Below, piece after piece: positions 37,031-47,170 of a stretch of DNA of 47,323 bases. How positions within the stretch are numbered: the first letter of the stretch is position 1; each line of letters starts with the position of its first letter. Source of the DNA: an uncultured Chlamydiae bacterium (GTDB taxonomy: Bacteria > Chlamydiota > Chlamydiia > Chlamydiales > SM23-39); contig CAISYW010000080.1 of NCBI GenBank assembly GCA_903889795.1, positions 1 through 47,323 on the forward strand, written 5' to 3'. Both the position numbers and the translations under genes were made by a program. The notes under the pieces were generated by a model, which was not told the origin of the DNA, ran no database searches, and saw nothing but the letters and a program-made list of their open reading frames with translations.

Positions 37031-37717
37031 TTATTGTAAGATCTTCACTAGGCCTGTCAAGCCGATGATGAGACTAAACATTGAAATCGTAAAACCTAGA
37101 CCGCGCGAAAAGATTTGCGATGTCCGATCCGCGCGTTGAACGAGCGTTGAAACAAACAATCCATTCAATCCATCCGATATGATCATGCCGAGCATGAAGA
37201 CGATGCCGATGATCCCCGAAAATAACCATCCGGCAGTCAATGAGGCTGAGATTGAAAACAGGGCGATTTGACTAAAAGTATCGAACGAAAAGGCAAAAAG
37301 CGCTCCGATCGTCATGATCAGAACAGAGTTGGTCTGTTTACCTGAAAATTTCTTCACCAGGAAACTTCTGACCCCTACAGGCAGGGAAGGCGAAGAAGAT
37401 TTTTGAAAAACATTCCATAGGTTTAATGCTCCAAAAACCACTAAAAAGAAAATCGAGATCCAATTTCCGAATCCTTCCAGCCACTCGGGAACATGTGATT
37501 GAATCAGTCCTCCGCCGATGATCAGGCTGACGAGAATAACAACCAGGCCATGGCCGAGTGAAAACAAAAAACCAACCATTTTTGATAAGATTCGATTGTC
37601 ACGAATCGTTCGGGTGAGAGCGTCGATTGTCGCGAGATGATCTAAATCAAATCCGTGCCGAATTCCCAATGTTAAAGCCATGAAAATCATCAATTGCCAT
37701 GAGGTGTCCGGATTCAT
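37031..37717 (-). CDS. Short NiCoT-superfamily nickel/cobalt permease (UreH/NicO-like)
   Basis: RHGFDLDHLATID matches the NiCoT signature RHA(V/F)DADHI. It has ~6 hydrophobic helices in 228 aa and is the last gene of the hyp operon. Confidence 0.75.
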   Translation of the reverse strand: MNPDTSWQLMIFMALTLGIRHGFDLDHLATIDALTRTIRDNRILSKMVGFLFSLGHGLVVILVSLIIGGGLIQSHVPEWLEGFGNWISIFFLVVFGALNLWNVFQKSSSPSLPVGVRSFLVKKFSGKQTNSVLIMTIGALFAFSFDTFSQIALFSISASLTAGWLFSGIIGIVFMLGMIISDGLNGLFVSTLVQRADRTSQIFSRGLGFTISMFSLIIGLTGLVKILQ

Positions 37718-37730
37718 ATTTATTCCCTGT

Positions 37731-38777
37731 TTAACAAATTCGCGGCAACTGATCTCCGCTTAGTCTGTGGAGATAGCGCTGTGAGCCAAAAGAGTTTTTT
37801 AATGCTGTACTGGGATTTAAAGATTCTGAAATTACTTGTCCAATGATACTTGCTTGCTGCCCTTCGGAAAATCTCCGGATGATTTTAACGGCTTGCGATG
37901 CCTGATTTTCGGGAACAAATGCGATAAAACGGCCTTCGTTGGCGACAAAAAGAGGATCAAATCCTAAAATTTCACACGCACTATTTACAGCATCGCTGAC
38001 AAGAATCGTTTTTTCTTCGATGGAGAAATCCATTTTTGCTGATTCCGCTAGTTCGACTAATGCAGTGGCCAAGCCTCCGCGGGTTAAGTCTCTCATGCAA
38101 TGGATGGTAATGCCTTCATGCAACAAGGCTTGGACGAGAGGAAATAGGGATGCGCAATCGCTGATCAGGGGCGAGGAGAATGCAAGACCTTGCCGCTTTG
38201 CCATGACGGCCATCCCATGGCGGCCGACATCGCCGCTCAGGATCATTGAATCGCCCGCTTTGATTTGCAGAGGATTGATGGGGTAATCGACCATGCGAAT
38301 GCCGATGCCGCTCGTGTTAATGAAAATGTTATTGCCTGTTTGCCTTTCGATGACTTTGGTGTCGCCTGTTACGATTTGCACTGATTGCGCATCGGCTTCG
38401 ATTTTCATGGAAGCGACAATGCGCTGTAAGTCTGCTTGGAGAAATCCCTCTTCGATGATAAAGCCGCAGCTTAAGTAATAGGGTTTGGCGCCGCACATCG
38501 CCAAATCATTCATTGTGCCTGTGACGGCCAATTTCCCTATATCGCCTCCCGGAAAGAATATCGGTTGTACGACATATGAGTCGGTGGTGAACGCGATCTG
38601 GTTTTTGGGTAGGTTCAAAACCGCCCCGTCATGCAAGAGGGCTAAATGTTCATTGGCGAAGGCGGGGAGAAAAATCTTTTCGATGAGCTTGCTTGTCTGC
38701 TGGCCGCCGCTTCCATGGGCCAATGTGATGATCTGTTGATCATCGAGCGTAAGCGGACAGGAGAAATTCTCGATCAT
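37731..38777 (-). CDS. hypE: Hydrogenase maturation protein HypE
   Basis: PurM-like fold motifs (GTMNDLAMCGA) and the diagnostic C-terminal PRIC. The ATG at 38777 overlaps the hypD stop (ATGA). The longer ORF-track start lies inside hypD. Confidence 0.93.
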   Translation of the reverse strand: MIENFSCPLTLDDQQIITLAHGSGGQQTSKLIEKIFLPAFANEHLALLHDGAVLNLPKNQIAFTTDSYVVQPIFFPGGDIGKLAVTGTMNDLAMCGAKPYYLSCGFIIEEGFLQADLQRIVASMKIEADAQSVQIVTGDTKVIERQTGNNIFINTSGIGIRMVDYPINPLQIKAGDSMILSGDVGRHGMAVMAKRQGLAFSSPLISDCASLFPLVQALLHEGITIHCMRDLTRGGLATALVELAESAKMDFSIEEKTILVSDAVNSACEILGFDPLFVANEGRFIAFVPENQASQAVKIIRRFSEGQQASIIGQVISESLNPSTALKNSFGSQRYLHRLSGDQLPRIC

Positions 38778-44401: not shown

Positions 44402-45191
44402 ACTGTTCGCTTGCCTTTTGAAAAGCCTCTGTCGTGCAATTGTAGCTGCGTAAAAGTCCTCGAATCGAACCGGCCGACGTGCCGAATTCGGTTTCCCACC
44501 AACGTGTCAAGGCCAAGGGGTTTGCGGTTTCTTTGGGTCCAAAGCAGCCATAACAGCCGCGCTGATAGGAAGGGCATAGCGCTTCGCAGCCGGCATGAGT
44601 GATTGGGCCTAAACATGGGCTTCCGTATGCAACGGTCACGCAAATATTTCCCTTTTTTTTGCACTCTGTGCAGACACTGCAGCTTGAAACGGCAGGTTTT
44701 TTTCCGATAAGGAAACTATTGAGCACTTCTAATAATTGATATTTATTGATCGGACACCCGCGCAGTTCATAATCGACCTTTACGTGTTGGGAAATCGGGG
44801 TAGATGAAGTCAATGTACGGATATATTCCGGATGGGCGTACACAATTTTTTTGTATTCTTCGACGTTAGCGAAATTGCGCAAGGCTTGAATGCCTCCGGC
44901 TGTCGCGCATGCTCCGATCGTAATGAGTAACTTGGATTGGCTGCGAACTTCCTGAATTCTCTCTTTGTCATGTTCTGTTGTGATGGATCCCTCGACGAGA
45001 GAGATATCATAGGGGCCGGGCAGGAGGGCTTTCGAAGCTTCGGGAAAGTTAGCGATCTGCACTAACTCAGTGACAGCCAACAGTTCATCTTCGCAGTCGA
45101 GCAAAGATAATTGGCAGCCATCGCAGGAAGCAAACTTCCAAACAGCCAGTTTGGGCAGAGGTTCTTTTTTGAGGAGAGCCAGTTTGTTCAC
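44391..45191 (-). CDS. [NiFe]-hydrogenase small (delta) subunit, NuoB-like
   Basis: [22 protein letters not shown], and a C-terminal Cys-rich region ([26 protein letters not shown]). GTG start immediately after the gamma-subunit stop. Confidence 0.9.
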
Positions 45192-46034
45192 TTATAGCTC
45201 CTTGATCGTTAGCCAGGTTTTGAGTTGCTCGTATGAAAATATGGGTCCGTCTTTGCATATAAAATAGGGGCCGTATTGACAATGCCCGCAAAAGCCGACA
45301 GCGCAAAGCATATTTCTTTCCATCGACAAATAGACGTTCTGTTCAACGATTTTCGAGCGTATGAGTTCCTGGATGCCTACTTTCATCATGATTTCCGGTC
45401 CGCAGAGAAGTGCAAGGGTGTTTTCAGGATGTCGAAGGTGTTTGGCGATCAAAGATGTGACAAAACCGACATGTCCGCTCCAGTTCGCAGCGGCACGATC
45501 GAGGGAGGTTTGGATTTCAAATCCCAGCCCTTGCCAATGCTGCAGCTCATTTTTGAACAAAAGATCTTCCGGGGTTCTCGTGCCATACAAGAGCGTGATT
45601 TTTTTATAATCCTTTCGATTGGCGGCCAGATGATATAAGACAGGGCGCAGCGGAGCCAAACCCAATCCGCCGGCAATCACCAGAACATCGCAATTTTTTT
45701 TGGATAGAGGCCAATGGTTGCCGAAGGGGCCGCGGACTCCGATTTCATCCCCTTTTTTTAAATGCTGCATTGCGTTTGTCACAGCTCCAACGGCGCGAAT
45801 CGTATGGATCCATTCGCCCTTTTTCGCCGGATCGCCGCTGATCGAAATGGGGACTTCCCCAAATCCGAAGTGGTACAGCATGTTAAATTGACCGGGCAAA
45901 AAAGCGAGGACTTCTCCATTGCGCGGAGTGAGAGCCAGGGTAAAGATGTCATTCGTCTCTTGTACAACCGATTTAATTTGATATGTCTTCGGCAATAAAA
46001 TGAGTTTTTTTTGGCTTGTTTCCATGTTTTTCAA
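45192..46034 (-). CDS. Hydrogenase gamma subunit: FAD/NAD(P)-binding oxidoreductase with a C-terminal Fe-S motif (PyrK/AsrB-like)
   Basis: Flavoprotein-reductase layout ([15 protein letters not shown]) and C-terminal [10 protein letters not shown]. The start is TTG at 46034 (overlapping the beta stop) or ATG at 46025. Confidence 0.85.
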
Positions 46035-47170
46035 CTTGATCGGCTGTTGTTTACATCGCTTTCAGTTTTTAGCTCTTGTAATTCTTCCGTTACATCGATG
46101 CCAACCGGACACCAGGTAATGCACCGCCCGCAGCCGACACATCCTGACGTGCCAAACTGGTCCTTCCATGTTCCGAATTTATGTGTCAGCCATTGGCGAT
46201 AACGCGATTTTGCTGATTGGCGTATGCTGCCGCCATGAACATATGAATGCGACAAATTGAAACAGGAATCCCAATTTTGCCAGCGATCGACATGGCTTTT
46301 ATCTAAGCTGACCCTGTCCGTGATATCGGAGCAAAAGCAGGTCGGACAGACCATTGTGCAATTGGTGCAATTCAGACAACGCTCCGCCACATGATCCCAT
46401 CGTTTGCAATTCCAGCTTTGCAACAGCATTTTATGAACATGTTCATTATCTACTTGGCGAACCATCTCTTTTTTGTTTTTTTCGACAAGATGATGGGCTG
46501 ATTGACATTTTGTTTGATCTGCGGGCGGCAATGCCAATTGATCGCAAAGAGCTTTTCCTTTAGGAGAACCGATGTCGACGATAAAATAATGATCTTTGTC
46601 ATTGATAACTTCGGTTAAAGCTAAATCATAACCCTCTTTGACCTCAGGCCCCGTGCCCATCGACGCACAAAAACAGGTGTTTACCGCCTGAGTGCAGTGT
46701 ACGGCCACCAGGAAGAGATTTTCCCTTCGCTGCTGATATTGTTGGTAGACGGCAATCTGATGATTAAAGACTTTGTCCTGGATCAATATCGCTTGCATCT
46801 CACAAGCCCTGACTCCAATAAAAGCCATTTTCTTAATGGGGGGAGTCGTTTCTTTGAAAACGATCATTCCATTATCTTGCTTGCGTGTTGAAAACAGATG
46901 CTCGCGAGGAGGAAAGAGATGTTTTTTCCAACTGTGAGGTCCTAGATTATATCCAAAATATGCTTGATCGCTGCGCCGTTTAAGACGGTAGCGCCCGGGG
47001 TCTTGTTCATCTACCCAGCCGATGGGCAAATCTTGAGCGGATTGAATCTCATCACAGATGATGACTTCATTTCGAATGGTTGGCCCTAAGAGCTTATAAC
47101 CATCGTTTTGAATCAAATTGAGTAGTTGTTGGAATTGATTGGTAGTACAGAGTAATTTTGTTTTAGCCAC
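46031..47170 (-). CDS. Hydrogenase beta subunit: 4Fe-4S dicluster protein (AsrA/HydB-like)
   Basis: Ferredoxin motifs [14 protein letters not shown] and [12 protein letters not shown]. Size is 379 aa. It is the first gene of the beta-gamma-delta-alpha order. GTG start. Confidence 0.85.

Follow-up and report, generated by a model that had tools for sequence, protein, structure and literature searches.

Gene content of the hydrogenase locus

The stretch of DNA analysed here, referred to below as the window, is a complete metagenomic contig of 47,323 bp from an uncultured Chlamydiae bacterium (CAISYW010000080.1). Between positions 37031 and 47170 it carries eleven open reading frames (ORFs) on the minus strand, which encode the four subunits of a [NiFe] hydrogenase (hydB-hydG-hydD-hydA), followed by a maturation endopeptidase, a short HypA, HypF, HypC, HypD, HypE and a NicO-type permease. 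Families were assigned with Pfam and NCBIfam profiles, and start codons were taken from the gene calls of independent assemblies. An earlier reading of the sequence (the original prediction) had named eleven minus-strand genes of these families, and all of them were recovered. With the assembly-called starts the ten junctions measure +5, 0, -11, -8, -19, -14, -23, -14, -4 and +13 nt, corresponding to seven overlaps, one abutment and two tiny gaps; the earlier count of nine overlapping or abutting junctions is reproduced with the longest-ORF starts only.

The beta subunit (hydB/hyhB; 46031..47170, minus strand, as for all genes of the operon) is an Fe-S electron-transfer protein of 379 aa with 20 cysteines. 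It matches Pfam Fer4_22 with 112 bits and contains two CxxCxxCxxxCP motifs, at residues 265 and 344. Its NCBIfam scores for HydB (139 bits) and ShyB (136) exceed that for AsrA (118), and the best PDB match is 9nez_B, the beta chain of sulfhydrogenase 1 (122 bits). The FAD- and NAD(P)H-binding gamma subunit (hydG/hyhG; 45192..46025; 277 aa from the start called in other assemblies) combines the Pfam domains NAD_binding_1 and DHODB_Fe-S_bind with a C-terminal [2Fe-2S]-type cysteine cluster, CAVGFCGHC. It scores 207 bits against NCBIfam PRK08345 and 166 bits against 9nez_C, its best PDB match, with the next match at 68 bits. The delta or small subunit (hydD/hyhS; 44391..45191; 266 aa, 15 cysteines; Pfam Oxidored_q6) contains the CDGC motif and scores higher for NCBIfam HydD (163 bits) and ShyD (158) than for VhuG (111); in the PDB, 9nez_A (146 bits) ranks above the small subunits of groups 3c and 3d. 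Its N-terminus contains neither an RRxF motif nor a twin-arginine translocation (Tat) signal, and the hydrogenase is thus predicted to be cytosolic. No cytochrome b or membrane subunit was found among the structural genes of the operon.

The alpha or large catalytic subunit (hydA/hyhL; 43064..44401; 445 aa; Pfam NiFeSe_Hases) contains the L1 motif RICGIC at residue 76 (C78, C81) and the L2 motif DPCISCSTH at residue 428 (C430, C433), the latter followed by a C-terminal tail of 9 aa for proteolytic maturation. The four Ni-Fe ligands C78, C81, C430 and C433 are invariant in 22 relatives. The motifs that the original prediction had quoted for the four subunits, including the CGHC of gamma, were all found in place.

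Downstream of the structural genes lie seven genes for maturation and nickel supply. The endopeptidase (42598..43071; 157 aa; Pfam HycI) scores 88 bits against TIGR00072, for which the cutoff is 47. Like this protein, the HypF, HypC, HypD and HypE proteins are canonical: the carbamoyltransferase HypF (40063..42366; 767 aa) has all five HypF Pfam domains, the chaperone HypC (39858..40085; 75 aa from the assembly-called start) begins with MC and matches Pfam HupF_HypC with 85 bits, HypD (38774..39871; 365 aa) matches Pfam HypD with 482 bits, and HypE (37731..38777; 348 aa) contains the Pfam domains AIRS and AIRS_C and a C-terminal PRIC motif.

The HypA protein encoded between the endopeptidase and HypF (42353..42616; 87 aa) begins with MHE, and its match to the Pfam HypA profile is confined to positions 1-67 of 112. 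It is not an artefact of this assembly, because the same protein follows the endopeptidase in many phyla: HypA proteins of 87-89 aa with a conserved LGALSH(I/M)SxEHFxEHF motif are encoded directly after the endopeptidase in cassettes from Nitrospinota, Acidobacteriota, Planctomycetota, Desulfobacca, Alpha- and Gammaproteobacteria and Verrucomicrobiota, and in some genomes the endopeptidase carries it as a C-terminal extension (P0320, P0327). A search of 1.8 billion representative sequences returned 401 clusters, of which the best 150 are almost all 85-95 aa long and aligned end to end. In a Foldseek search, an AlphaFold model of the protein (predicted local distance difference test, pLDDT, 91.7) matched HypA structures best, over its full length and with a TMq of approximately 0.8; among them are structures of Thermococcus kodakarensis HypA bound to the group 3b large subunit HyhL (5yxy, 5yy0). 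Because these full-length matches are to HypA structures that are 35-50 residues longer, the model indicates that the short HypA is the nickel domain of HypA alone. The Thermococcus HypA, in contrast, has a zinc domain (matched targets of 121-139 aa).

The last gene of the operon encodes a putative nickel permease, a short form of the NicO/NiCoT type (37031..37717; 228 aa). The protein scores 63 bits against Pfam NicO (PF03824; cutoff 27.7) and 67 bits against TIGR00802, below the cutoff of 333; it contains the signature motifs HGFDLDH and GHGLVV, and a crude hydropathy scan shows only four clear transmembrane peaks. HoxN-type transporters are about 100 aa longer. The gene occupies the same position of the cassette in three related chlamydial loci (L081, L087 and L088). 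In the examined loci of other phyla none was detected beside the cassette, so that within this comparison a 3' nicO is confined to the chlamydial clade.

Group 3b assignment and chlamydial context

Profile and PDB scores, together with the type of the partner subunits, give good support for placing the hydrogenase in group 3b (sulfhydrogenase-type). The alpha subunit lies closer to 3b references than to those of groups 3a, 3c, 3d, 1, 2 and 4: NCBIfam ShyA (297 bits) and HydA (260) lie well above FrhA of group 3a (146) and VhuA of group 3c (135). In the PDB, 9nez_D and the cytosolic hydrogenase of T. kodakarensis (5yxy_A) both score 225 bits, followed by MvhA (174), the large subunit of HydABCSL (148), FrhA (129) and the NAD-reducing enzyme of group 3d (123). 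For each of the four subunits the best PDB match is a chain of one and the same entry, 9nez. The predicted diaphorase pair, an AsrA-like Fe-S beta subunit and an AsrB/PyrK-like flavin/[2Fe-2S] gamma subunit, is typical of group 3b, and no HoxEFU-, FrhB- or Hdr-like genes were found in the window. Groups 3a, 3c and 3d were considered and rejected on the scores and on the type of partner subunits, in agreement with the group 3b-like assignment of the original prediction. Beta and gamma were also considered as an anaerobic sulfite reductase AsrAB, and this was rejected: AsrA and AsrB score below HydB and HydG, an AsrC is lacking, and the best PDB matches are sulfhydrogenase chains. According to HydDB, enzymes of group 3b are NADP-coupled, reversible and possibly active as sulfhydrogenases (PMC5037454).

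The four subunits share order, Ni-Fe ligand motifs and approximate size with sulfhydrogenase I of Pyrococcus furiosus and T. kodakarensis (HydBGDA/HyhBGSL; 9nez, 5yxy): beta, gamma, delta and alpha are 379, 277, 266 and 445 aa long in the window and 367, 292, 261 and 428 aa in the PDB sulfhydrogenase I chains. The archaeal sulfhydrogenase lies outside the whole bacterial clade in a neighbor-joining tree of large subunits (below). The bacterial Hyh enzymes of group 3b, as in Mycobacterium/Rhodococcus, methanotrophs, Acidobacteriota, Nitrospinota and others, have large subunits that are 58-63% identical to that of the window, and their operons have the same order of beta, gamma, delta, alpha and protease, mostly with a gene for a cyclic nucleotide monophosphate (cNMP)-binding protein inserted after beta, and often followed by a hypA of the same short family and hypFCDE. 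Group 3b hydrogenases of this type are very widespread: a scan of genome contigs matched more than 597 species-representative genomes.

For chlamydiae the enzyme has been described before. Köstlbacher et al. (2021; PMC8242063) report 'Type 3b [NiFe] hydrogenases' from a HydDB screen of chlamydial genomes, with 15 group 3b entries in 14 genomes in their Supplementary Data 12, and find the chlamydial homologues to be monophyletic with those of Methylacidiphilum. Since group 3b had thus been reported in 14 chlamydial genomes, the novelty that the original prediction had seen in the operon does not hold: its NADP-type hydrogenase is a further example, in the same phylum and the same HydDB class, of an enzyme already published for chlamydiae. 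That the operon might prove common and described in this clade was one of the refutations named in the original prediction itself, and this is the case. The operon anatomy, the short HypA and nicO are not described in the portion of that paper available to us.

The large subunit of the window has relatives at 64-79% identity in at least 120 distinct clusters (clustered at 90% identity), some of which are labelled Chlamydiota bacterium or Simkania sp.; the sequences with these labels are 77-78% identical to it and fall in the same clade. In the neighbor-joining tree, built from 207 sequences, the window belongs to a clade of 125 tips that contains all 119 close database matches and the loci L001, L002, L026 ('Chlamydiae bacterium') and L081, and excludes all of the 75 or more loci from Acidobacteriota, Nitrospinota, Planctomycetota, Verrucomicrobiota, Proteobacteria and other phyla. 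The clade was recovered in 89 of 100 bootstrap replicates on a subset of 62 taxa, and every one of its tips with a taxonomically specific label is chlamydial. The chlamydial loci L087 and L088 have the same cassette as the window, including nicO. The same cassette order is found within the different flanks of L081, L087 and L088, as would be expected if the genes are inherited as a unit, a point on which the original prediction was right.

The structural genes of the window differ in one respect from those of nearly all bacterial loci compared. In 71 of the 73 bacterial group 3b loci that span the beta-gamma junction, a gene for a cNMP-binding protein of approximately 155 aa separates the two subunit genes; these loci include the closest labelled chlamydial ones, L087 and L088, as well as L081 and L002. 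A HoxI-like protein of this kind is known from a methanotroph 3b cluster (PMC12319191), and a cNMP-binding ORF from the 3b cluster of Rhodococcus equi (PMC13332983). The gene is absent only from the window, where 5 nt separate beta from gamma (46026-46030), and from L001. Given how nearly universal it is among these loci, the nearest chlamydial relatives not excepted, the Pyrococcus-like order beta-gamma-delta-alpha is a secondary reduction in one chlamydial sublineage. The match to Pyrococcus hydBGDA that had been noted earlier is therefore accurate as to order and similar sizes, and the likeness in order arises only through the absence of this gene.

Several features show that the contig belongs to the Chlamydiota. 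Family searches of the window revealed a run of housekeeping genes in chlamydial order, rpmE-prfA-prmC-ffh-trmD-rplS-rnhB ... yicC-gmk-metG/recD, which mirrors CT022-CT033 of Chlamydia trachomatis. Other content of chlamydial type comprises a long FtsH and a hydrolase of the CPn0927/CPn0928 family with leucine-rich repeats. The polynucleotide phosphorylase (PNPase) shares 84% identity with a 'Parachlamydiales bacterium' protein and approximately 75% with many proteins from metagenome-assembled genomes (MAGs) of Chlamydiia/Chlamydiales. The chlamydial chromosome proposed earlier is thus borne out by the PNPase matches, the CPn0927/0928-family protein and the gene order.

The integrity of the contig was assessed with the gene tables of other assemblies, which come from separate ENA analysis accessions. 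An identical large subunit occurs in at least three of these independent assemblies, whose contigs reach up to 22 kb, and there too alsS, the 264-aa ORF and the ferritin/Dps and NUDIX genes follow it. As at least three assemblies carry the same join, a chimeric junction at 33-37 kb, which the original prediction had named as a possible refutation, is very unlikely. The operon has a GC content of 47.1% and a GC content at third codon positions (GC3) of 49.2%; comparing GC, GC3 and relative synonymous codon usage (RSCU), it is slightly richer in GC than the window mean and inside the range of the FtsH, aspartyl-tRNA synthetase (AspRS), PNPase and Ffh genes of the same contig. Those genes of the window that are low in GC are effector-like ORFs.

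The contig stops 153 nt upstream of hydB, within the 3' end of a gene on the same strand (47171-47323), and in four other assemblies with an identical large subunit the break falls no more than about 100 nt from this point. That all assemblies with the identical large subunit break here suggests a repeat or strain-variable region upstream of hydB. Between the truncated gene and hydB lies a hairpin on the minus strand, AGCCGC-TTTT-GCGGCT (47203-47218). Rfam and tRNA scans of the whole window returned nothing, and a scan of 33-47.3 kb for promoter and terminator consensus sequences gave counts equal to those of shuffled controls.

Neighbouring genes and other features of the window

Outside the operon, and convergent with nicO at zero gap, lies a gene for the catabolic acetolactate synthase AlsS (35393..37030, plus strand; 545 aa; NF006378 760 bits, cutoff 510). 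The original prediction had joined it with the hydrogenase into a fermentative island. This neighbour is not conserved: alsS does not lie beside the cassette in the three related chlamydial loci L081, L087 and L088, so the hydrogenase-alsS island is not supported. Where the window has alsS downstream, its chlamydial relatives have pyruvate phosphate dikinase (PPDK) or acetyl-CoA hydrolase. L087 is flanked by acetyl-CoA hydrolase and PPDK, L088 by PPDK, and L081 by an AMP-binding enzyme and the E1/E2 components of a 2-oxoacid dehydrogenase; phosphoketolase also occurs among the cassette neighbours in related chlamydial loci. The neighbours thus differ by locus, yet are repeatedly enzymes of the pyruvate/acetyl-CoA node.

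The unannotated gene 12 nt upstream of alsS (34586..35380, plus strand; 264 aa) encodes a predicted divergent alpha-acetolactate decarboxylase (ALDC). Sequence searches were uninformative: the 264-aa protein has no match among Pfam, NCBIfam or PDB sequences, PF03306 does not match at E <= 0.01, and the best PF03306 E-value among 22 members of its family is 0.13, for one member. A PDB profile search found no ALDC, and the family is small, its 29 clusters all being labelled 'hypothetical'. The sequence-search matches to HP0242 and phosphite dehydrogenase were rejected as spurious. An AlphaFold (AF2) model computed from the 22 sequences has a pLDDT of 90.4 and a predicted template modelling score (pTM) of 0.90. 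In a Foldseek search of the PDB with this model, the 14 best matches are all ALDC structures (E 4e-10 to 1e-7, probability 1.00, TM-score 0.59-0.77, 10-12% identity). H213, H215 and H239 are invariant in the family, as an HxH...H pattern that is reminiscent of the three-histidine zinc site of ALDC; the third histidine follows at a spacing of 24 residues, compared with about 11 in ALDC.

The gene context of distant family members points the same way. A homologue lies upstream of an AlsS-like thiamine pyrophosphate (TPP) enzyme in a Riflebacteria MAG (L083), where it is preceded by a Zn-dependent alcohol dehydrogenase; another lies upstream of an AlsS-like enzyme in L084, and a third downstream of one in a Coxiellaceae MAG (L085). 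Only L086, among the distant family loci, has no AlsS-like partner. Compared with ALDC proper (AlsD/BudA, PF03306), the family shares the predicted fold, a similar size and the pairing with AlsS in both the alsSD and budAB orders; in contrast, the 264-aa protein is only 10-12% identical and is not recognized by PF03306, NCBIfam or a PDB profile search. On the basis of predicted structure and gene context, since sequence searches gave only spurious matches, it is probably a highly divergent acetolactate decarboxylase missed by PF03306. Acetolactate synthase has been reported from some chlamydiae, and canonical ALDC only from some Simkaniaceae (Dharamshi et al., 2022; PMC9666466). The 264-aa family could fill this chlamydial gap.

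Elsewhere in the window, several minus-strand ORFs have unusual features. At 6034-7842, a non-discriminating AspRS (residues 1-434) is fused to a YbaK/EbsC-type Cys-tRNA(Pro) deacylase-like domain (456-597), an uncommon combination. A 666-aa protein (12521-14521) combines the CPn0927/CPn0928-family alpha/beta hydrolase with C-terminal leucine-rich repeats like those of XopAC/XopL-type effectors and is probably a secreted effector; its gene has a GC content of 37%, and the repeats are visible as a 69-bp tandem array at 12561-12751. A 72-aa ORF fragment with a P-type ATPase hinge motif (14937-15155), in a gene-poor stretch of low GC at 14.5-15.3 kb, looks like a gene remnant. In the gene of a 616-aa AAA ATPase (23177-25027), a 111-bp segment is tandemly duplicated at the 3' end (23180-23401), and a 488-aa proline-rich protein without a family match (31813-33279) contains a 78-bp tandem repeat at 32830-32988.

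Proposed function and competing explanations

From these data we consider it highly probable that this operon of an environmental member of the Chlamydiota is vertically maintained, and that it encodes a cytosolic, heterotetrameric, NAD(P)-coupled and bidirectional group 3b [NiFe] hydrogenase together with most of its assembly factors. The operon supplies a cytosolic heterotetramer with intact metal-ligand residues, a protease of its own, the proteins that assemble Fe(CN)2CO, the nickel domain of a chaperone and a putative nickel permease. By homology to sulfhydrogenase I and bacterial Hyh, NAD(P)H would reduce the flavin in gamma, from where electrons would pass through the [2Fe-2S] cluster of gamma, the [4Fe-4S] clusters of beta and the Fe-S chain of delta to the Ni-Fe site in alpha. 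There, protons would be reduced to H2, or the reverse reaction would take place. Gene identities, architecture, membership of the clade and chlamydial surroundings are demonstrated by the present data, and the cofactor, the reaction direction and the physiological role are inferred. For assembly of the active site, HypF, HypC, HypD and HypE are expected to build the Fe(CN)2CO moiety; nickel would be imported by NicO and delivered to alpha by the nickel-domain-only HypA, and the endopeptidase would then cut off the 9-residue C-terminal tail after His436.

If the enzyme is active, we lean, with modest confidence, towards the venting of surplus NAD(P)H as H2 under low oxygen as its likeliest role. 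We infer this role because of a published chlamydial analogy and the fermentative character of the neighbouring genes. Disposal of reductant under hypoxia has been shown for a mycobacterial 3b enzyme, as quoted in Köstlbacher et al. (2021; PMC8242063), and that paper proposes hypoxic H2 evolution for chlamydiae by analogy with mycobacteria.

A number of observations weigh against this overall reading. The NCBIfam scores of the structural subunits (139-297 bits) lie below the equivalog cutoffs of 460-880, which were built for Thermococcales, and the subunits are therefore not orthologues of the Thermococcales enzyme in the NCBIfam sense. In the 'chlamydial' clade, the majority of tips are without a taxonomic label. 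With the cNMP-binding gene missing from the window and L001 only, it cannot be taken for granted that the enzyme of this lineage is fully active and regulated. The short HypA contains no cysteine in its 87 aa, and thus no zinc finger of the CxxC...CxxC type. No HypB motif was found in a six-frame translation of the window, in which P-loops occur only in FtsH, Ffh, the AAA ATPase and RecD, nor was HypB found in the immediate surroundings of eleven other short-HypA cassettes (L008, L011, L016, L027, L032, L053, L056, L057, L061, L074 and L081). The operon, described in the original prediction as self-contained, is so only nearly, as it has no HypB in the window and a HypA devoid of the zinc domain. 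Finally, neither the direction of the reaction (evolution or uptake) nor a preference for NADH or NADPH can be read from the sequence.

This last point leaves room for the same enzyme to work mainly in the uptake direction, oxidizing H2 from the host or from neighbouring microbes to regenerate NAD(P)H. HydDB describes group 3b as physiologically reversible (PMC5037454), Köstlbacher et al. (2021; PMC8242063) put a question mark on the reverse reaction, and the methanotroph literature regards group 3 enzymes as a source of NAD(P)H from H2. However, no uptake-type respiratory hydrogenase or CO2-fixation genes were seen on the contig, and the neighbours (here AlsS with the ALDC-like protein, in relatives PPDK, acetyl-CoA hydrolase and phosphoketolase) are enzymes of fermentation or of the pyruvate node; uptake as the main direction is a real alternative, though in our view the less likely one. 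More radically, the missing cNMP-binding subunit, HypB and HypA zinc domain could mark the operon as a decaying, non-functional relic, an idea that draws on the loss of the cNMP-binding gene just here and in L001 and on the lack of HypB in the window. Against it stand eleven intact ORFs in which every catalytic and cluster-binding cysteine is conserved, and the recurrence of identical proteins in several assemblies. In addition, a zinc-less HypA without a neighbouring HypB is the norm for this type of cassette across phyla, in a maintained family of about 400 clusters, and the archaeal sulfhydrogenase works with four subunits (the chains of PDB 9nez). Decay is accordingly a very improbable explanation.

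Two further alternatives concern the origin of the genes rather than their function. The hydrogenase and alsS might have been acquired recently and together as a 'fermentative redox-valve island', as the original prediction had it: the cassette is compact, its flanks differ between genomes, the same module of beta, gamma, delta, alpha, protease, hypA and hypFCDE occurs in many phyla, and every assembly breaks just upstream of hydB. Recent transfer as a foreign island was rejected because GC, GC3 and RSCU of the operon lie within the housekeeping range of the contig, and its composition is thus not foreign. Moreover, the chlamydial sequences form a clade of their own that is not nested in a donor phylum, alsS has no place beside the cassette in the related loci, and no integrase, tRNA or repeat boundary was found, which makes joint recent acquisition improbable. 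A mis-binned or chimeric contig, with the hydrogenase derived from another organism, could be suspected since this is a metagenome contig that ends so close to hydB and since 3b hydrogenases are abundant in co-occurring phyla. We regard this as extremely unlikely: the join from the hydrogenase through alsS, the 264-aa ORF and dps to nudix is repeated between assemblies, the longest contig listed for exact or near-exact variants of PNPase, Ffh and HypF is in every case one of 40,361 bp, those large subunits with a label that lie nearest come from chlamydiae, and composition is uniform along the contig.

The vertically maintained group 3b hydrogenase therefore remains the reading that we prefer. 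As a more specific and tentative proposal, the locus may represent a stripped-down hypoxia module with two parts overlooked by current annotation, in which a 3b hydrogenase without its cNMP partner would be supplied with nickel independently of HypB, through a zinc-less HypA tied to the endopeptidase and a dedicated short NiCoT permease, alongside an AlsS whose ALDC branch is undetectable by sequence. If this is true, the ALDC branch would complete the route to acetoin in chlamydiae as well as in some Riflebacteria, Eremiobacterota and Coxiellaceae, for which spontaneous formation of acetoin or an incomplete pathway has been assumed. A hidden ALDC family would likewise change the calls of acetoin-fermentation pathways for chlamydial and other MAGs.

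For group 3b hydrogenases at large, the comparison indicates that the bacterial module usually has five structural genes, not four, and that one chlamydial sublineage has lost the cNMP-binding gene. It also defines a HypA reduced to the nickel domain, which is widespread and seems to function with no HypB encoded beside it. For chlamydiae, the window adds one more well-assembled example of the 3b enzyme with a complete operon map, and lends support to the view in the literature that facultative anaerobes, capable of releasing or consuming H2, are numerous among environmental chlamydiae.

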